In this document: positions 28,207 through 39,128 of the stretch, in pieces
How the letters are laid out: each line of letters starts with the position of its first letter
Numbering within the stretch: the stretch's first letter is position 1
Program-made: the position numbers and the translations under genes
The notes under the pieces: model-generated
Told to the model about the DNA's origin: nothing
Seen by the model: the letters and a program-made list of their open reading frames with translations, nothing else
The model's database searches: none
NCBI GenBank assembly: GCA_943787575.1
Contig: CALSMY010000018.1
Span: 1,240 to 65,239 of the forward strand
DNA from: an uncultured Opitutales bacterium
GTDB lineage: Bacteria; Verrucomicrobiota; Verrucomicrobiia; Opitutales; Seribacteraceae
DNA length: 64,000 nucleotides
Direction: 5' to 3'

Positions 28207-31200
28207 TCACTTCTTTCTTACTACTTTTCGTAAAAACCGGGCGGTAGGATTTTTATGTTTTTCTAATAAAGAAGTTACAGTCCCATGATGTAAGAGTTTG
28301 CCCCCCTCTTTTCCCCCTTTCGGTCCCAATTCAACAACGAAATCTGCTTCAGCGATGAGATCGACATCATGTTCGATCACAACCACGGTGTGACCATCGT
28401 CTACTAATCGATGTAGGAGAAGTATTAATTTTTGGCAGTCTTTTGAATGAAGCCCAATGGTGGGCTCTTCTAAAACATAAAAGTTTTTTTGGGCCTTACC
28501 TAACCTTCTTCCCTTGAGTTCGATCCCAGAAGAAAGTTCCGATGCCAGTTTAAGCCTTTGCGCCTCTCCTCCTGAAAGGGTGGGTGAAGTTTGACCCAAC
28601 CTCAAATAGCCTAGCCCTGTTTCTTTCATGAGGGAAAAGGTTTCCTTAAGCAATTCATCAAAGGAAAAGAAATCTACTGCATCGGCGAAAGTGAGGTTAA
28701 GAATTTCGTCGATGTTCTTTCCTCTCCATTTTAAATCAAGGACCTCGTCTTTGTAGCGCTTACCTGCACACTCTTCGCACTCAACATATGAATCTGGCAG
28801 GAAATTCATTTCCAATTTAATTTTTCCAGCTCCTTTGCAAATTTCGCATCTGCCCCCTTTTACATTAAAGGAAAAATCACTGGGTCCAAGCCCGCGAGCC
28901 TTGGCTTCGGGTAAGGTAGAGATCAATTCACGTATACGTGTCCAGACTCCTAAGTAAGTAACTGGAGTGGAGCGAGAAGTTTTGCCTATTGGGCTTTGTG
29001 TGACTTCGATTGCTTTGGCAAAGATGTTGCCATTTTTCAATTCGTAACCTTCAGCTTTAATATGTCCGGATCGTTCTTTAATCGATTGTTTAACCCCTTG
29101 AAAAAGAGGGCCTCGTACAAGGCTAGATTTTCCCGCTCCTGATACCCCACAACATACAATTAGGTGCCCTACGGGTAGACTCACCTTTAAGTTTTTAAGA
29201 TTCCGAAAATTAACTTTTGAAAGTTCAAGGTAAGCTTTTGAAGTTTTGCTATTGAATTTAGGAAGCGGGCGCCATTGCCCTTTTATAGGGTGGGCTATTC
29301 CCATGGAAAGGTGTTTACCGGTTCCCGATTGAGCATTCTCTGCAATTTGGAGTGGCTTCCCTATTTCAACCACACGACCGCCATCTTCTCCGGCGTGCGG
29401 GCCAATTTCGACAACACAATCTGCTTGTGAAATAGTTTCCAAATCATGCTCTACCACAAGCAGTGAATTCCCCTTGGCTTGGAGCTTGCGTAAAGAATCG
29501 ATTAATTTCTGATTGTCTGATGGGTGCAGGCCAATGGATGGCTCATCTAGAACATACAGAACACCCGAGAGGTTAGAACCCAATTGGCCGGCTAGGCGGA
29601 TTCTTTGAGATTCCCCACCAGACAGGGAAGCGGTTTCACGATTAAGGGACAAATAATCCAACCCCACATTGCTCATAAAGCATAACCTCTCGAGAACTTC
29701 GGGCAATATTGCGTTCAAAATAGGTAATTTTTCTTTTTGAACTTGGAGGTTTTGGAGAAAACCAGAAATTTCCTCCGGTGCCAGGGCAAGTAGTTTTGGT
29801 AAAGAAAGAGATCTTTTGTTCTTATCTTGTAAAAATACATTTCGGCCAATTGGATTTAAGCGTTCTCCAAGGCATGTAGGACAGGTTTCCCCATCAGTTA
29901 GTTTCCACCAATCTCCACTAGCCGGAAGTTCTTCTTTCATCCAGTCGTAAATTCTTCCATATCCATGACAAGATGAACATTGTCCGCGGGGCGAATTCCA
30001 GGACAGTAAGGAAGGCTCAAGGTCTGGATAAGCTTCCCCGGTTGAAGGATCTGATTTACGAGTAGAAAACCAAGAAATTTCGCCATCTGGAAAAAGGAGG
30101 AGGCAACGCCCTTTACCGATGTTTAAAGCATAGTCGATTGAAGTGTTTAAAACGGGTCTTGAGGGAGGTTTTACCCAGTGATTCATTACCACTTCAATGT
30201 CGTGCAATCGGTACCGGTCAAGGCCCTCAAAGGAATGCGTGGATAAAATATCTCCATCACAACGAACTTCCATAAACCCTTGTTCTCTGGCCCAGTTAAC
30301 CAAGGGTTTATGATGGCCCTTGCGATTGACAACGAGCGGAGCAAGCAGACGAACACCGCTGATTTTTTGAATGCGTTTCGCTAGGATTCGGGAAATTTCC
30401 TGAGGGGTGGAGGAGATCAAGGGTTTTCCGCTTTGCGGACTACATTGTTCTCCAAGGCGAGCGTAGAGAAGTCTTAAGTATTGAGCGATTTCTGTAATGG
30501 AACCAACCGTAGACTTTTTGGAACCACGAGTAACCCTTTGTTCGATGGCTACTGTCGGAGAGATCCCTTTAATTTGATCGACTTTTGGCTTTCCGACTTG
30601 TTCGACAAATTGTCGAGCATAAGAAGACATAGATTCGAGGAACCGCCGTTGTCCTTCAGCAAAAATTACTTGGAAGGCAAGAGACGATTTTCCAGATCCA
30701 GAGGGTCCAGTAACAACCACAAACTGGTTTGAGGGAATTCGTAGGTTTATGTTTTTGAGGTTGTTTTCTTGAGCCCCGAGTATTTCGAGGTCTTTTTTTC
30801 TGCCGTAGTTACCTTTTTTAAATCTCCCAGAGTCGATTTGTTTATCTTTAGGTTGTTTTTCTAAATCTGAGAATAAGCTACTGGTCGCAGTATTTAGAGA
30901 GCGGAACGAACGAGGAGACCCTTCAGCGATAATTTTACCCCCTAGCTTTCCTGCTCCTGGCCCAAGTTCTACGATCCAATCAGATTGGCAAAGAACCATG
31001 GGATTATGTTCAATAACAAAAAGCGAATTTCCACCCGCCACTGTTTTTTTAAGGCAGTCAACTAAACGCTGAACATCAGAGAGATGAAGACCGGTGGTAG
31101 GTTCATCAATTAACAAAATTGCAGGCTCCGACTTTTTATCAATTGGTCCCATATATTTGGCTAATTTCAATCTTTGCGATTCCCCACCTGAAAGAGTGCC

Positions 31201-33621
31201 AAGCGGTTGGCCCATCTTGAGGTAGCCCAATCCAAGTTCATGAAGAAGGGATAGTTTTTTGTGGGTCTTGGGAAAATGAGCGAATCTGAGTAATGCATCC
31301 GCAATGGTAAGTTCTAAAGCATCGGCAACATTTAATCCGTCCAATTGAATTTCCAAGAGATCATCCTTAAAGCGTTTGCCCTGACACAAAGAACAAGGAA
31401 TGGAAAGGTCGGGCAAGAATTGCATTTCCACATTCTCATAACCTAAGCCCATGCATGAATCACACCGTCCTTGCCCCGAGTTAAAAGAAAAGTCAGATGC
31501 AGAAAAACCAGACATTCTCGCCTGCTCGGTTCGCCCAAAGGCTTCTTTGATGGGTCCCCAGGCATCGGAGTAAAGGGCAGGGTTTGACCGGGAGGATCGA
31601 GCAACGGTTCCTTGGTCAATCATAACCACTTCAGAAAAAGGCAGGTCACTGGTTACCCAACCGTTGGGTGAGCCATGGCTAAGTTCCTGATAAATTAGGT
31701 CATGAACAAGGGTAGATTTGCCTGAGCCAGATAAACCAGCGATTGAAGTAAATTGACCAAGAGGCAAATTGGCATTGAAGTTCTTTAGGTTGTGAACATT
31801 TGCTTTCCTAACTTTTAGAAATTTAGTGGGTGCCTTGCTTGGCTTAATTTTACTTCGCCGGTGTTCTGTTGACTTCCCGGCGAGCCATTTTCCGGTCTCG
31901 GATTTGGCGGAACGCAAGAGTTGGGGAACCGTACCCTCAAAAGTAATATGCCCCCCAGCTAACCCAGGTTGCGGGCCAATTTCGATTACCCGATCAGCTG
32001 CTCGAATTACTTGATCATCGTGTTCAACTACGCATACGCAATTTCCACTTGTCGCCAAGTCCTGAAGGATCCCAATCAAACGGCCAACATCTTTATGATG
32101 CAGTCCGATGGTTGGCTCGTCTAAGGCAAAAAGGGTATCCGTCAAACCAGCCCCAAGGCAGGCAGTAAGATTAATTCTTTGCGTCTCTCCACCACTCAGG
32201 CTTCTTGAAGTACGATCCAGGCTTAGATAATCCAGGCCAACATCTCTCAAGTATCCAAGCCTGGTACAGATAGCCTCAAGGGGTAAGTCAGTCTTTGGCT
32301 CATTACTAATAGGCTGAGTTTTCATCAGCGAGAGGAGTTCGCAAACCGGTAAAGAATATAATTCTGGAAGAGAGCGACCTTTCCACTTCCAGAGTTGTGG
32401 TTCATATTGAAACCTTGTGCCCTTACATTCGGGACAATTAAAGTATCCTCGATACTTGGATAGAAACACCCGAACATGCATTTTATAGGTCTTTTTTTCC
32501 AACCATTTGAAAAAAGAGTTAACTCCATACCAACGTTCATTCCCCTCTTCATACAAGGGATCACCTTTCCAAATAAAATCTTGGCTGTCTTGAGAAAGGT
32601 CTTTCCATGCCAACTGCGGATCAATACCTAGATCTTTTGTTGATAGCATGAGGTCTTCAAGGCAGTGACCGTATACTTTACCCTGAAATGGCTTGATCGC
32701 ACCTTCAGATAAAGAAAGCTCTGGGTCGGGTATGACTAGACTTGGATTGATTTCAATTATCCGTCCAAAGCCTTTGCATTTTGGGCAAGCCCCGACGGGA
32801 GAATTAAAAGAAAATGAACCTTGTTCTAATTTCGCATAGCTTTTCCCCGAAACTCGAGACCGCAAACCAGTATGAAAAGATGACAAGATTTCTCCGCTCG
32901 ATGATCTCGCTTCAGCTTTTCCTTTTCCGTGGGAGAGGGCAAGGGATATGGCTTCGGCCATTCGATTTTGACTCTCAGGTTTTATCTTAATCCGGTCAAC
33001 GACAACAAATGCAGAAGTTTGATCCCAGGTCCCCTCCTTAAGAAGATCCTCGATGCGACCGTAATCTTTATCTGACAGTATTCGTGCATGACCTGCAGAA
33101 ATTAAAAACTGAAGAAAATCAGTAGTCGGCAAACTACCCCGCTCTATGGAAAAGCCTACAACTACATTTCGATTACTGAATTGGCTTGTAAAAGCCTTGG
33201 CCTGAGCCGAAGGAGTTTCTACTTGTATGAGCTTTCCTTTATCATCGGGGTCATGCAGGCGAGCAACTTGAGGAAACCAAACTTTAAAATAGTCGCAGAG
33301 CTCAGTCATCGTACCAACGGTTGACCTGGAATTCCTTACGGTATTCTTTTGTTCCACAGCAATGGAAGGACGTGCATTAGCCATGGAGTCAATTTTGGGT
33401 CGTGGTAAAGATTCCATGAATTGCCTGACATAGGGACTGAATGTTTCCACATACCGTCTTTGCCCCTCTGCGTGAAGAACATCGAAAAGTAGAGTCGATT
33501 TTCCTGTTCCGCTTAAGCCCGTGATCACGGTTAATTGACCAGGTAACAAGTCCAAATTGATGCCTTTTAAGTTATTTTCTCGGGCACCGCGTAGTTGGAT
33601 GGGCAGTGATTGTTTAGACAT
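28207..33621 (-). CDS. uvrA: Excinuclease ABC subunit A, tandem double-length form
   Basis: GARENNLK and GAQENNLK starts of two units; four Walker A and four LSGGE motifs; EGQRR twice; CxxC zinc fingers. Confidence 0.96.
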
Positions 33622-33670: not shown

Positions 33671-33747
<77 letters not shown>

Positions 33748-33863: not shown

Positions 33864-34019
33864 ATGAAACCTACCTACAATCCATCTAAACTGCGCAGAG
33901 CCCGAAAGTTTGGCTTTCGCAAGCGCAATCAAACGAGTGCCGGACGCAAGGTGCTTCAAAATCGTCGCCGCAAGGGCAGGGCTAAATTAACCGCCTCTGT
34001 TCTTCCTCGGTTTCGTTAG
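33864..34019 (+). CDS. rpmH: 50S ribosomal protein L34 (absent from the ORF track)
   Basis: Translated by hand: [51 protein letters not shown]. Confidence 0.96.
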
Positions 34020-34045: not shown

Positions 34046-34393
34046 GTGAGTTTAGGTCTTTCACGCGAGGAAAGGTTGCGTAAAACCTACGAATTCTTGC
34101 AGGTTAAATCAAATGGCGTTTCGATTAGGCAAGCCCCATTTTGGGTCCAAGCCCATGAGAAATTAAGTGGCCCTTCCAAGCTAGGAATAATTGCCACCAA
34201 ACGCTTGGGAAATGCGGTGGCTAGGAATCAGGCAAAAAGACTAATTCGCGAATTGTACCGCAATTATAAAAACCAATTACCGTGTATCATGGACTTGGTT
34301 GTTTTGCCAAGGCGGGCAATTTTTCAAATGCCATTTACTAAGTTAGAAACTTTATTCATTGATGCTCTTAACAAAGCGTCCAAACGATTATGA
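34046..34393 (+). CDS. rnpA: Ribonuclease P protein component
   Basis: ERLRK..EF; GIIATKRLGNAVARNQAKRLIRE; follows rpmH. Confidence 0.95.
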   Translation: MSLGLSREERLRKTYEFLQVKSNGVSIRQAPFWVQAHEKLSGPSKLGIIATKRLGNAVARNQAKRLIRELYRNYKNQLPCIMDLVVLPRRAIFQMPFTKLETLFIDALNKASKRL

Positions 34394-36477
34394 AAAATTA
34401 TTTACTGGGAGCTGGCTTTCTCGTTCTTGCTTTTTATCTGATTTGGCAACAAGGAGCCGAACAGATTGAATATTCTGACCGTCTTTCAAATAAAGAAGTA
34501 ATTGAGCAAACTCAAAGAGTTGAAGGCATTGAGGGTAACTCCTCTCCTTATTCAACAACTTCTGGCATAGAACCGGGCATTGTAAATTCCGAAGACTCGA
34601 CTCCATTTGCTGCAGCCGTACAACTTGGGGAGGAGAAACTAACGGATGGATTAAGCACAAATCTTTCCTCGATTACCTTTTCCAATCACACTGGAGCAAT
34701 CCGATCGGTTCAGCTTCATGAATCGGAAAGATTGAATAAGGCTTATGATATAGAACATTCCGAACAGCCTTTGCTAGGGATTGCTTTTGAAGATGAATCC
34801 GGAGCTCTTTTATCAGAAGCATTGCCCAATCCTCGAGGTTTTCGCTTGATTGAAAGTTCACCTAGTCGGGTGGTTTATCGATGGGAATCTCCTGGAAATC
34901 TGAGCATTGATCGAATTTATGAACGCTCAGAGGCAGATGGATATGGTCTTATCCACAAAACCGTTTTTCGTAGTTTGAGAGATTCTCCCATGGTAATTGA
35001 TCGAGTACGAATGTATCTGGGCTCAAGTTTTCAAATTCCCCGTATGTACAATCCTTTTGATCAGGCATCTACTTATTTAAGTGTTGGTTATTATAATGAA
35101 GGTGCTCCATTGGCTGAGGGTTGTTCCTGTGCCACTTGCAGTGGAAGAATCGATGGTGAAAGAGAAGAGTTTTTTCAATTAAATGAAATGGGGCCGAGTG
35201 GAAAGATTGAACCAAGGAGATTGTCTAAGGCTAAATGGGCATGCGTGAACAATCAATTCTTCGTAAATCTCTTACGACCAGAGTCTGAACTTAACGACTT
35301 CCGAGTTTGGGGTGAATCTGTACAATCCTCTATTGACGAGAGTGGAAATGAAATTCTTGGAATTAGTGGTGCAGTTTCTTTCCCCTTGGGAATTTTTAAA
35401 CCGAAGCAAACCAAAGAATTTTCTTTTAAGGTATATGCAGGTCCGAAGGATTACATTGAACTCTCCAAACTTGCGCACGAACAGAAGAAAGTCATGCAAT
35501 TTGGGGTCTTTTGGTGGATTTCAGAGCCCTTAAGTTGGAGTTTAAACAAATTAAGTTCTCTTCTGGGTAGTTATGGTTTGGGCATAATAGTACTCACGGT
35601 ACTGGTAAAGCTCATCCTTTGGCCCCTAACTGCTCAAGCTACTCGTTCTCAAAAGAAAATGCAGGCCTTACAAGGACCGCTCGCCAAGCTTCGAGAAAAG
35701 CACAAGGGGAGTCCCCAGAAGCTTAATCAGGAAATGATGAAGTTTTACAAGGAATACAAGGTTAACCCTTTTGCTGGCTGTTGGCCTATTCTTGTACAAA
35801 TCCCTATTTTTCTTGGAATGTTTTGGATGTTGAGGTCCGCGGCAGAATTATACGGTCAGGAATTTTTATGGGCGATGGACTTATCCGAGCAGGATAGTGT
35901 AGCTATGCTTTACGGATTTTCCTTAAATGTATTACCCATTTTCATGGTGCTTACGCAGTGGTATCAAATGAGGCTAAATCCAATGCAATTAGGGCCAGAA
36001 ATGAGCGAAGCACAAAGAATAAATGCAAAAATGATGCGCTTTATGCCCTTCATGTTTTTGGTTTTCCTTTACTTTTTCTCATCTGCTCTAGTTCTTTACT
36101 GGACGGTGCAAAATATAATGACCATTTTGCAGACGCTTTTGACCAAAAATGTAACCTTTCCCAATTTGACTGAAAAGGACGACAAAGGTCGGGAAAAAAG
36201 TTTTGATCGAAAATCAGAAAGAGAAGTCGAGGACATTGAGTATGAAGAGGAATCAGACGAGGAAGAAAAAAAGTTACGAAACCTCCTTGGCTTAAAAGCA
36301 AGAGGAAAGATTGATCCCAAACTTTTGGAAAGCAGGTATAAGGAAAGAATGAACAACTATACTTCAAAGCGCCTCAAAAATATGTCGGAACAAAAAAGGA
36401 CTGCAGCTGAAGAAAAGCGTGACAAAATCACTGAGGCTTATGAAACTTTGAAGAAAATAGATAACAAGCAATCTTGA
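34390..36477 (+). CDS. yidC: Membrane protein insertase YidC with a C-terminal J-like domain
   Basis: YAGPK, YGLGIIVLTVLVKLILWPL, VNPFAGCWPILVQIPIF, FLWAMDLS, ALVLYWTVQN; about 110-aa extra C-terminal tail. Confidence 0.95.
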   Translation: MKNYLLGAGFLVLAFYLIWQQGAEQIEYSDRLSNKEVIEQTQRVEGIEGNSSPYSTTSGIEPGIVNSEDSTPFAAAVQLGEEKLTDGLSTNLSSITFSNHTGAIRSVQLHESERLNKAYDIEHSEQPLLGIAFEDESGALLSEALPNPRGFRLIESSPSRVVYRWESPGNLSIDRIYERSEADGYGLIHKTVFRSLRDSPMVIDRVRMYLGSSFQIPRMYNPFDQASTYLSVGYYNEGAPLAEGCSCATCSGRIDGEREEFFQLNEMGPSGKIEPRRLSKAKWACVNNQFFVNLLRPESELNDFRVWGESVQSSIDESGNEILGISGAVSFPLGIFKPKQTKEFSFKVYAGPKDYIELSKLAHEQKKVMQFGVFWWISEPLSWSLNKLSSLLGSYGLGIIVLTVLVKLILWPLTAQATRSQKKMQALQGPLAKLREKHKGSPQKLNQEMMKFYKEYKVNPFAGCWPILVQIPIFLGMFWMLRSAAELYGQEFLWAMDLSEQDSVAMLYGFSLNVLPIFMVLTQWYQMRLNPMQLGPEMSEAQRINAKMMRFMPFMFLVFLYFFSSALVLYWTVQNIMTILQTLLTKNVTFPNLTEKDDKGREKSFDRKSEREVEDIEYEEESDEEEKKLRNLLGLKARGKIDPKLLESRYKERMNNYTSKRLKNMSEQKRTAAEEKRDKITEAYETLKKIDNKQS

Positions 36478-36513: not shown

Positions 36514-37266
36514 ATGTCTGGGCATAGTAAATGGGCTACCACTAAGAGGCACAAAGCTGCCATTGACGCAAAGCGTGGTAAAATCTTTAGTGTAATCAGT
36601 AAAGAAATATCCTTGGCCACTCGGGATGGTGGCAAAGATGCAGAGTTTAACCCCAGGCTTCGAACCCTTGTTTTAAAAGCCAAACAGGCCAACATGCCGT
36701 CTGATAACATTGACCGGGCCATTAAAAAAGGAGCCGGCGAACTGGGCGGCGTTACCTATGAAGAACTGCTTTACGAGGGATATGGGCCGGGAGGAGTAGG
36801 TTTGATTGTCGAAGTCACCACTGATAATAAAAATAGGTCGGCATCTGATGTAAGGAGTACTTTTTCAAAGGGAGGTGGAAACTTGGCAGGAGTGGGTGCA
36901 TTGGCTTTCAACTTTAAGCGGAAAGGTCAGTTCCTGCTAGCCCTGGATAAAATGCCAGAAGATGATTTGACTGAATTAGCTTTAGATAACGAAGCGGAGG
37001 ATGTTTTGGTGGAAGATGATCATTATGAGGTAATTTGTGAAACTTCCGATTTTGATCGATTGGCCGAGGCATTTGAGAATAAAGGAGTAGAACCGGATTC
37101 CTCGGAATTAGCTTACCTTCCCAATATTTTGGTGCCAATAAAGGACGAAGATGTAGCTCGTAAGGTTATGAATTTGATCGAGGCGTTGGAAGAACTCGAA
37201 GATGTTAAAGCGGTTCACGGAAATTATGACATGGACAAGCCTTTGCTCGAAAAGATTTCTTTGTAA
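36514..37266 (+). CDS. yebC: YebC/PmpR-family protein
   Basis: MSGHSKWATTKRHK, YEGYGPGGV, TDNKNRS; TTGACA just upstream. Confidence 0.95.
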   Translation: MSGHSKWATTKRHKAAIDAKRGKIFSVISKEISLATRDGGKDAEFNPRLRTLVLKAKQANMPSDNIDRAIKKGAGELGGVTYEELLYEGYGPGGVGLIVEVTTDNKNRSASDVRSTFSKGGGNLAGVGALAFNFKRKGQFLLALDKMPEDDLTELALDNEAEDVLVEDDHYEVICETSDFDRLAEAFENKGVEPDSSELAYLPNILVPIKDEDVARKVMNLIEALEELEDVKAVHGNYDMDKPLLEKISL

Positions 37267-37316: not shown

Positions 37317-39128
37317 ATGCCCATCTCTGATCATACTGACTATTCGAACCAGCCAAATGAAGTTGGTTTGGTTCATGAAGAATCTTTTGTGTGCCAGGAT
37401 CGCTTTGAACTTTCCAACGGTCAGTTCTTAGAGGGTTATGAATTAAGGTACGAGTGCTATGGGGAGCTTAATTCTGCAAAAGACAATGCGATCTATATCT
37501 GTCATGCTTTAACAGGCGACCATCATGTTGCTGGAATTTACAGTGAAGAAGACGATAAGCCGGGTTGGTGGAACCATGTTGTGGGGCCAGGAAAGCCGGT
37601 TGACACAAATCGTTTCTTTGTAGTTTCTTCGAATTGCCTTGGTGGTTGCAGGGGATCCACTGGGCCTTCCAGTAAGCGTGCAGATGGGAGTGGGGAATCT
37701 TACGGATCGTCTTTCCCTGATCTTTCTATTCGAGACATGATTCATGCACAGCGTGCGTTGGTTGATCATCTCGGGATAACCGCCTTGCATGCGGTGGTTG
37801 GTGGAAGCATGGGCGGAATGCAGGCCTTGCAATGGATTGTGGAGTATCCGGGGTTTGCCAAAAATGCTATCATCATAGCGGCCACCGCCCAGCACAGTGT
37901 ACAAACCATAGCTTTTAACGAAGCTGGTCGTCGTTCCATTCGAGGTGATGACGGGTGGCAAGGTGGGGATTATCAGGAACAGACTAGCCCAGACCAAGGT
38001 TTATCGGTAGCTAGAATGATGGCTCATATCACCTACCTTTCCGATATAGGTATGGAGGAAAAATTTGGGGGTGACCGAAGATTAAATCCCAGCGAAGATT
38101 TTGAATTTAGCGTTCAGGGTTATCTTGATTATCAGGGTAAAAAGTTCATCGAGCGATTTGACGCCAATTCTTACCTTAAACTTACCGAAGCTTTAGACAG
38201 ATTCGATTTAGTGGGCGATCAAGGCTTGGCAAAGGCTGTTTCTGGAGTAAAGACTCGCACCCTGGTCATCGCTTTTTCTAGTGATTGGCTGTATACACCT
38301 AGGCAAAACAAGCAGATTGTGGATGCTTTACTTCAAGCAGGAAAAGACGCATCCTACTTGGAGATTGATCATTCCCATGGCCACGATTCTTTTCTCATCG
38401 ACTCTGGCCCCTTTCTTCGGGCATTGGATGTTTTTCTTCAAACCGAGGATTCCTCAAAAACAGAGAACCTTGAAGCTGATGGGTTTAGAAAATTAAAAAA
38501 TCGATATGAGGTAAAAAAAGAAGCAGATTTTAGAGCGATTGATGACTGGGTGGCTCCCAATGATAAAGTATTGGATTTGGGTTGTGGCAGAGGATTATTG
38601 CTCGAGCATTTGCGGGAAACCAAAGAGGTTAGAGGATTGGGCGTTGATTGGGAATTAAACAATTCCACTTTCTGTGTAGCCCGGAAAGTTCCTATTTATC
38701 AGGAAGAAATTTTATCGGCTTTGACAAAGTTCAACGAAAACTCTTTCGATTGGGTAATTTTTTCTCGTATGGTCGAATCCTTGCCTGAACCAGGCAGAAT
38801 TCTCAAGCAAGCCCTTAGGGTGGGACGTAAAGTAGCCGTAAGTTTTGTTAATCATGGCTACTGGAGAAACCGTTGGAATTTCCTCTTACATGGAAAACGG
38901 GTATGCAACGATGTTTACCCCCATCAATGGGAGAGCAGTCATTTAAGTAATCATTTTTCGATTCGCGAGTTCGAAGATTTTTGCCTTCGTCTACAAGCGG
39001 AAGGAATGAAGGTAAGATTGGGACGAAGAATGTTTTATCGAGGAGACTGGGTAAAGTCTTGTTCTGCCTTTCCTAATTTCCGGGCAGGGCTAGCCATTTA
39101 TGAATTAGTTAAGGAAGGCATGGACTAG
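37317..39128 (+). CDS. metX: Homoserine O-acyltransferase MetX fused to a MetW-like methyltransferase-fold domain
   Basis: CHALTGDHH, GGCRGSTGP, GGSMGGMQ, RFDANSYL, HGHDSFL; C-terminal VLDLGCGRG...ALRVG...VSFVNHGYW. Confidence 0.92.
   Translation: MPISDHTDYSNQPNEVGLVHEESFVCQDRFELSNGQFLEGYELRYECYGELNSAKDNAIYICHALTGDHHVAGIYSEEDDKPGWWNHVVGPGKPVDTNRFFVVSSNCLGGCRGSTGPSSKRADGSGESYGSSFPDLSIRDMIHAQRALVDHLGITALHAVVGGSMGGMQALQWIVEYPGFAKNAIIIAATAQHSVQTIAFNEAGRRSIRGDDGWQGGDYQEQTSPDQGLSVARMMAHITYLSDIGMEEKFGGDRRLNPSEDFEFSVQGYLDYQGKKFIERFDANSYLKLTEALDRFDLVGDQGLAKAVSGVKTRTLVIAFSSDWLYTPRQNKQIVDALLQAGKDASYLEIDHSHGHDSFLIDSGPFLRALDVFLQTEDSSKTENLEADGFRKLKNRYEVKKEADFRAIDDWVAPNDKVLDLGCGRGLLLEHLRETKEVRGLGVDWELNNSTFCVARKVPIYQEEILSALTKFNENSFDWVIFSRMVESLPEPGRILKQALRVGRKVAVSFVNHGYWRNRWNFLLHGKRVCNDVYPHQWESSHLSNHFSIREFEDFCLRLQAEGMKVRLGRRMFYRGDWVKSCSAFPNFRAGLAIYELVKEGMD

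Follow-up and report, generated by a model that had tools for sequence, protein, structure and literature searches.

A predicted J-domain fold, mostly without HPD, at the C-terminus of YidC in one family of Opitutales

The yidC locus and its product

The window (the whole 64-kb stretch of DNA analysed, from an uncultured Opitutales bacterium) has the gene order tRNA-Glu, rpmH, rnpA, yidC, yebC (Table 1). The yidC product matches PF02096 over residues 395-586 at 189 bits (cut-off 35), PF14849 over residues 278-383 at 40.5 bits (cut-off 24) and TIGR03592 at 202 (cut-off 84.3). Its core, its periplasmic domain and the rpmH-rnpA-yidC locus make it a member of the YidC/Oxa1 family. There is one yidC only in the source genome, which is 86% complete. 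We infer insertase activity from the family membership and from this being the sole yidC match.

Table 1. Features of yidC and its neighbours, in positions of the window
Feature	Position	Strand	Basis or remark
tRNA-Glu(TTC)	33671..33747	-	context
rpmH (L34)	33864..34019	+	context
rnpA	34046..34393	+	overlaps yidC start; no yidD between the two
yidC ORF, 695 aa	34390..36477	+	sole yidC match in genome
TM1/signal anchor, N-terminal hydrophobic segment, residues 1-24	34390..34461	+	hydropathy
Periplasmic domain (PF14849 match, residues 278-383)	34462..35544	+	profile match
CxCxxC (C245, C247, C250) in family-specific periplasmic insert of ~24 aa	35122..35139	+	
Insertase core, conserved, residues 386-588	35545..36153	+	PF02096, TIGR03592
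Linker, variable, acidic, predicted disordered, residues 589-620	36154..36249	+	18% mean identity, pLDDT <50
J-like domain, residues 621-695	36250..36474	+	predicted helices 621-632, 643-657, 659-663, 667-694
TSK in HPD position, residues 658-660	36361..36369	+	alignment of orthologous tails
yebC/TACO1 family gene	36514..37266	+	context

Several neighbours deserve mention in their own right. The yidD missing between rnpA and yidC adjoins thrS on another contig (G000:C2:157110-157466), and in one outgroup locus (L024) it is, by eye, in the usual place. Upstream on the minus strand, an ORF of 1804 aa (28207-33621) resembles by eye a double-length UvrA. Downstream on the plus strand, an ORF of 603 aa (37317-39128) is an alpha/beta hydrolase, MetX-like by context, fused to MetW.

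The periplasmic insert has no Pfam match. Its CxCxxC motif is possibly a redox or metal site. Among the genera of the family compared here (g1, g2, g4 and g5) the motif is present in 19/19 g1, 37/37 full-length g5 and 1/1 g2 proteins and in 1/8 from g4. The other 7 g4 proteins keep at least a CxxC in the insert. None of the 8 outgroup YidCs has the insert; they have a Gly/Phe-rich loop further on instead. The insert appears on the same branch as the fusion described below.

The fold of the tail and its distribution

The first-pass annotation of this DNA claimed that YidC runs in frame into a J-like tail with TSK replacing HPD, and the open frame and the triad in Table 1 bear it out. The tail sequence that it quoted begins at 36274, which is residue 629. 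Profile searches see little in the lone tail of the window protein. It reaches 14 bits (E 0.056) with PF00226, under the 27.8 cut-off, and it matches the NCBIfam HscB profile at E 3.4e-6 over positions 5-63 of 172, far under the cut-off. Orthologous tails align to it gaplessly over the whole domain, and two of these that have HPD clear the PF00226 cut-off when scanned alone (29.5 bits for g4, 36.6 for g2).

Although the PF00226 score is weak, a J fold is predicted. An AlphaFold2 model of the tail, built from a 57-tail alignment with 5 HPD rows among them, has a pLDDT of 87 and four helices in the J pattern. The top Foldseek match to this model is HscB (probability 1.00, TM 0.71, rmsd 1.7, E 0.23) and the top rows are mostly J-domains; nothing is found at E 0.001 or better. 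With VIA-align HscB is again best (Z 8.6, rmsd 2.5, 68 aligned), tied with Tim16/Pam16 (2guz_B; Z 8.3, rmsd 2.1, 62 aligned). Just these 2 chains of 48,161 have a Z of at least 8, a value that is modest for helical domains, and the tail is 11% identical to Tim16. In a model of core plus tail, from a 65-row alignment, the domain is confident and the linker disordered, with a pTM of 0.56. This means no fixed packing is predicted between core and tail. We conclude that the predicted fold of the YidC tail is that of a J-domain. An unrelated coil, which the first pass had named as an outcome that would undo its claim, is not what the helix pattern and the two structure searches point to.

In one Opitutales family, 67 of the 76 genomes have core and tail in one open frame. 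Of the remaining genomes 7 are without a match, 1 has a fragment and 1 has only a free J-protein. The length of the linker varies across the family, but the frame is never broken. A separate gene joined to yidC by an assembly indel is therefore ruled out, since the frame is single in 67 genomes and the changes in linker length preserve it.

The fusion was not found elsewhere. The YidCs of other families (16/16) end by query residue 610 with no J tail. An order-wide search covered 201 genomes, 197 with a match. Of the 139 non-family rows listed, only G160 enters the J region, and it does so across two stops; a further 48 weaker rows lie beyond the listing. There is a J-domain in 0/12 of the long-tailed loci parsed from other families, a count that leaves out 2 of 14 loci (unparsed) and 2 rows reaching residues 242-245. 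The tail profile matched 3 of 120 other genomes of the phylum, in 4 places; 3 of these lack a YidC motif, and a frame of 143 aa makes up the fourth. Among the best 150 of a 50%-cluster library (1.84 billion representatives) 6 clusters match the last helices and the full J-domain, and all are family-like by sequence. The ESM Atlas scores are all under 0.8 and are a lead at most. Among the samples searched the YidC-J fusion is limited to one Opitutales family; this is sampling and no proof of absence. A different YidC tail occurs in another Opitutales family (f3; L089, L090 and L093). It is about 90 aa long, conserved, basic and helical-looking, and it is not J-like.

Some database entries are already annotated with PF00226 and PF02096 together. 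Since the g2 and g4 tails pass PF00226 as well, automatic annotation is able to pick up the HPD-intact architecture. No description of a YidC J-domain fusion was found in the literature, as judged from titles and the starts of abstracts, and Barriot et al. 2020, the main survey of J-protein architectures in bacteria, may list it. Neither 'YidC' nor '60KD' appears in the text or one supplement of PMC10410713, whose further dataset files may list it.

Loss of HPD and change of surface charge

The survey for HPD-intact versions suggested at the first pass turned them up in 9 of 68 orthologous tails, namely all 8 from g4 and the 1 from g2, which are the basal genera. HPD is absent in the other 59 (19/19 g1, 39/39 g5 and 1 g1-like contig in a g5 bin). 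Their triads are varied, and one row reads EES. The best 120 database homologues of a g4 query comprise 34 with HPD, 2 with RPD, 82 with other triads and 2 without a readable tail.

Two YidC trees were made with the tail removed. One was a quick tree of 74 rows, which gave long-branch warnings and left out 2 short rows; the other was a careful tree of 24 chosen rows. In both the outgroups lie outside, g2 and g4 branch off in that order, and the remaining fusion proteins form a single HPD-less clade. Support is full for this clade and for the fusion clade as a whole, at 100/100 in the careful tree. The simplest reading of this order would be one fusion and then one loss of HPD, in the clade holding the window genome.

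The source of the domain can be judged from profile scores. The tail profile scores 35-52 bits against small membrane-anchored J-proteins of the same family, 25.5 bits against HscB, and 11 bits against the DnaJ and DjlA of the source genome. The free relatives considered here all stem from a single profile search, which does not sample at random. By similarity, the donor was probably a small membrane-anchored J-protein. The first-pass annotation had called the tail HscB-type. We reject HscB as its origin, because the free membrane J-proteins reach roughly double its score, the likeness is in loop lengths only, and a single Hsp70, with no HscA-like second one, was found in the genome (86% complete). 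The closest free relative is a 119-aa membrane-anchored J-protein at 52 bits in L032 and L033 (G024). The two copies are identical; the contigs that carry them nearly duplicate each other, and their bin has a contamination of 7%. This 119-aa protein was not found in the source genome (G000).

HPD is essential for Hsp70 stimulation, and DnaJ R22, K26, R27, K48 and K51 are basic residues facing acidic residues of DnaK, as described in PMC8215388. The DnaJ of the source genome is basic at 4 of these 5 positions in the same register. Two anchors fixed the register on the tails, the triad and the Ala-Tyr in the last helix (helix III), the numbering of the latter being assumed. The mean net charge at the five positions is +3.05 in the free relatives (n = 21) and +3.25 in 8 free loci. 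It is +1 to +2 in the fused HPD tails of g2 type (3 tails), -1.6 in the 8 from g4, and -2.4 in the HPD-less tails (19 g1 and 38 g5); the window tail is at -2. Acidic residues occupy position 647 in 52/57 of the HPD-less tails, 652 in 47/57 and 678 in 43/57. Since the fifth DnaK-facing position seldom has a basic residue in the free relatives either, the fall in charge comes from these three. Position 651, the K26 equivalent, is basic in 36/57.

The window YidC is without HPD, misses the PF00226 cut-off and is without a basic DnaK face. With HPD gone and the DnaK-facing charge reversed, the J-like domain likely neither activates nor docks DnaK. The first pass offered DnaK docking as one option, and the charge reversal argues against it; its other two options, a partner J-protein and the ribosome, are weighed below as possible partners. 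Stimulation of Hsp70 ATPase is predicted to be negative for the window tail, positive for g2 and uncertain for g4.

Other charged positions have been kept. Positions 630, 636, 669 and 677 are K/R in 66/66 of the fused tails counted, 638 in 63/66 and 679 in 64/66. In the free relatives (n = 21), where the count covers 669, 677 and 679, these are basic in 0, 0 and 1. It should be said that these fixed basic residues were picked from the alignment after the fact and are known as alignment positions, not as one surface. Some of them may be internal salt bridges. The fused domain has a net charge of +4 to +14 (one row was missed by the pattern), and 8/8 outgroup YidC tails are at +4 to +9. The linkers of g1 are at -4 to -10. 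In the window protein the domain is at +10 and the linker at -8. Since the linker is acidic, linker and domain together are only about neutral, unlike the outgroup tails.

The domain is under purifying selection, with a dN/dS of 0.11. Over 13 disjoint close pairs the values are 0.107 for the J-like domain, 0.265 for the linker, 0.077 for the periplasmic domain and 0.028 for the core. In the HPD-less clade (55 sequences) the domain has a mean identity of 52%, the triad of 29% and the linker of 18%. Among the 68 tails read, not one is cut short inside the domain. What the alignments, trees and rate estimates show together is a fusion, a loss in steps of HPD and of the charge facing DnaK, and a domain that has been kept under selection.

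Possible roles of the domain

The chaperone content of the genomes bears on what the domain could do. The source genome has DnaK, DnaJ, a DjlA-type protein and a membrane J-protein beside htpG, as well as motifs of Ffh, FtsY, SecA, SecY and trigger factor. Between 2 and 6 PF00226 matches are kept in 34/34 family genomes searched, so other proteins can activate DnaK. Hsp70 (PF00012) has one match in 25/28 family genomes and two partial matches in 3. There is one match, with no cognate HscA, in the source genome (86% complete), and no second, specialised Hsp70 fit for a deviant J-domain was found among the 28. An HPD-bearing membrane-anchored J-protein adjoins htpG in 21/23 loci examined (L084, at G000:C13:29532-32185, with L081, L082 and L103-L122), which were chosen as likely orthologues, 2 of them off pattern. 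This suggests a membrane-linked DnaK-HtpG unit. In the source assembly htpG appears split between two overlapping frames (G000:C13:30319-32185).

We tentatively favour the view that the domain is a folded, positively charged, J-derived module that docks the ribosome and replaces the ancestral basic tail of YidC, which we regard as quite possible, if short of probable. The basic C-terminus of YidC contacts rRNA H59, and tight ribosome binding needs it, as given in PMC5186731 and in PMC8595059 (citing Seitl 2014). The argument is that the domain stands where 8/8 outgroup YidCs have a basic tail of the kind that contacts H59. As the sequences and the tree show, the family ancestor had its short Lys/Arg-rich tail replaced by the linker and a J-domain. 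The basal fusions of g2 and g4, having HPD, would recruit DnaK to the insertase for the transfer of post-translational or tail-anchored substrates. The DnaK face later decayed stepwise and HPD was, on the simplest reading, lost once, while the hydrophobic core stayed almost fixed. R630, K636, R638, K669, R677 and K679 likewise stayed almost fixed while the DnaK face decayed. By analogy with basic YidC tails, the present domain would contact rRNA near the tunnel exit during co-translational insertion.

There are points against ribosome docking. Most of the charge is offset by the linker, which is acidic and also shifts the domain away from the membrane. The H59 contact in E. coli is described as directly after the last helix (PMC5186731), and the J-like domain sits about 35 residues beyond that site. 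A dN/dS of 0.11 exceeds that of the core and could mean only a need to stay folded. The g4 proteins, which keep HPD with a face already acidic, are unexplained by a simple story of an active domain that then died.

One can imagine instead that the domain binds some other partner at the membrane (SecYEG, SecDF-YajC, Ffh or FtsY, anionic lipids) or folds onto YidC's own cytoplasmic hairpin, gating or holding substrates. We consider this unlikely, though it deserves to be weighed. The domain combines basic positions that are fixed with acidic ones that are conserved, and motifs of Ffh, FtsY, SecY and SecA are in the genome, yet no specific partner is indicated. The YidC hairpin is basic by sequence, and salt bridges between hairpin and tail are described for S. 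mutans YidC2 (PMC8595059). Against the hairpin, the core-plus-tail model has no fixed packing at its pTM of 0.56, which is weak evidence from a 65-row alignment.

Another scenario follows Pam16, which tethers Pam18 at the translocon through a contact of J-domain to J-like domain (PMC3237618). The pseudo-J would pair with an HPD membrane J-protein, either the htpG-linked one or DjlA, and DnaK activation at the insertase would be kept in trans. The precedent itself, the tie of Tim16/Pam16 (2guz_B) with HscB as best fold match and the J-protein beside htpG in 21/23 loci all speak for it. We find it decidedly unlikely nonetheless. The fold is common to any J-derived domain, the Z near 8 is modest and the identity to Tim16 is 11%. 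Moreover, the basic residues were already fixed when HPD was still present, and the genes of the candidate partners are unlinked to yidC. Bolder, and improbable to our minds, is a bacterial analogue of the Hsp70 motors at eukaryotic translocons. In it the insertase would have acquired a J-domain of its own that activates DnaK, in the manner of Sec63/Pam18 and as the basal genera still have it, and this would have become a Pam16-like pseudo-J tethering an HPD J-protein and DnaK, with the periplasmic CxxC insert handling substrates on the opposite side.

The domain could also be a non-activating dock for DnaK or a competitor. Descent from an HPD J-domain, the basic K26 equivalent at 651 in 36/57 HPD-less tails and the presence of DnaK in the genome fit this. 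Against it, HPD is gone, 3/5 DnaK-facing positions are mostly acidic opposite a DnaK surface that is described as acidic (PMC8215388), and no specialised second Hsp70 was found in 28 family genomes, so we hold it to be very improbable. That the domain is a vestige, dead and tolerated at the C-terminus of YidC, would suit a triad that varies freely (29% mean identity) and a dN/dS about 4x that of the core, but it has the slimmest chance, with 0/68 tails truncated within the domain, a dN/dS of 0.11 vs 0.27 in the adjoining linker, and surface basic residues near-invariant over two genera.

YidC/Oxa1/Alb3 proteins with functional tails (E. coli YidC, S. mutans YidC2, R. baltica YidC) share the core, the periplasmic domain and the rpmH-rnpA-yidC locus, and like the window YidC they have a cytoplasmic C-terminal extension. 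Theirs is a basic tail, whereas in the window YidC an acidic linker leads to a J-derived domain that is predicted to fold and is net positive by itself, and there is a periplasmic CxxC insert. The class C membrane-anchored J-proteins (with a DjlA-like C-terminal J-domain) are the closest relatives of the tail. They are membrane-tethered and have the same spacing from triad to last helix, but they stand free and have both HPD and a DnaK face that is basic, the two features that the fused window domain has lost. HscB is the best solved-structure match, with a gapless alignment over 59 residues. It differs in that the YidC J-domain is C-terminal, has no HscB C-terminal domain and has no HscA-like second Hsp70. 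Pam16/Tim16 is also an HPD-less J fold on a protein-transport machine and is the tied best fold match. However, it is eukaryotic, a separate subunit and has a known J partner, whereas the YidC domain comes from an HPD ancestor within its own family. Descent from Pam16 is ruled out, since HPD was lost inside the family after the fusion and the identity to Tim16 is so low.

Sec63 is a J-domain protein at a eukaryotic translocon. Pam18 is described as a J-domain protein at a eukaryotic translocon too (PMC3237618). The HPD-intact YidCs of g2 and g4 follow the same logic of a J-domain at a membrane protein-transport machine, except that their J-domain forms part of an Oxa1-family insertase, on its side toward the bacterial cytoplasm, and the window copy is without HPD.

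To the fusion itself the analysis adds a series of charges, an estimate of selection, a likely type of donor and the CxxC insert in the periplasmic part. The fusion is found in one family only and is known here from genome assemblies alone. DnaK and YidC are reportedly both required for some tail-anchored proteins (Peschke 2018). No description of a physical link between DnaK and YidC was found in the literature searched. The finding bears on a possible direct hand-over of substrates from Hsp70 to a bacterial insertase and on the way in which it would work, and for that question the HPD-intact g2 and g4 proteins are a natural YidC-J fusion. The family holds a graded series from a free J-protein, through a fused domain with HPD and a basic face and a fused domain with HPD and an acidic face, to a fused domain without HPD. 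We argue that this series shows how a co-chaperone domain became a pseudo-domain that is conserved as part of an insertase.
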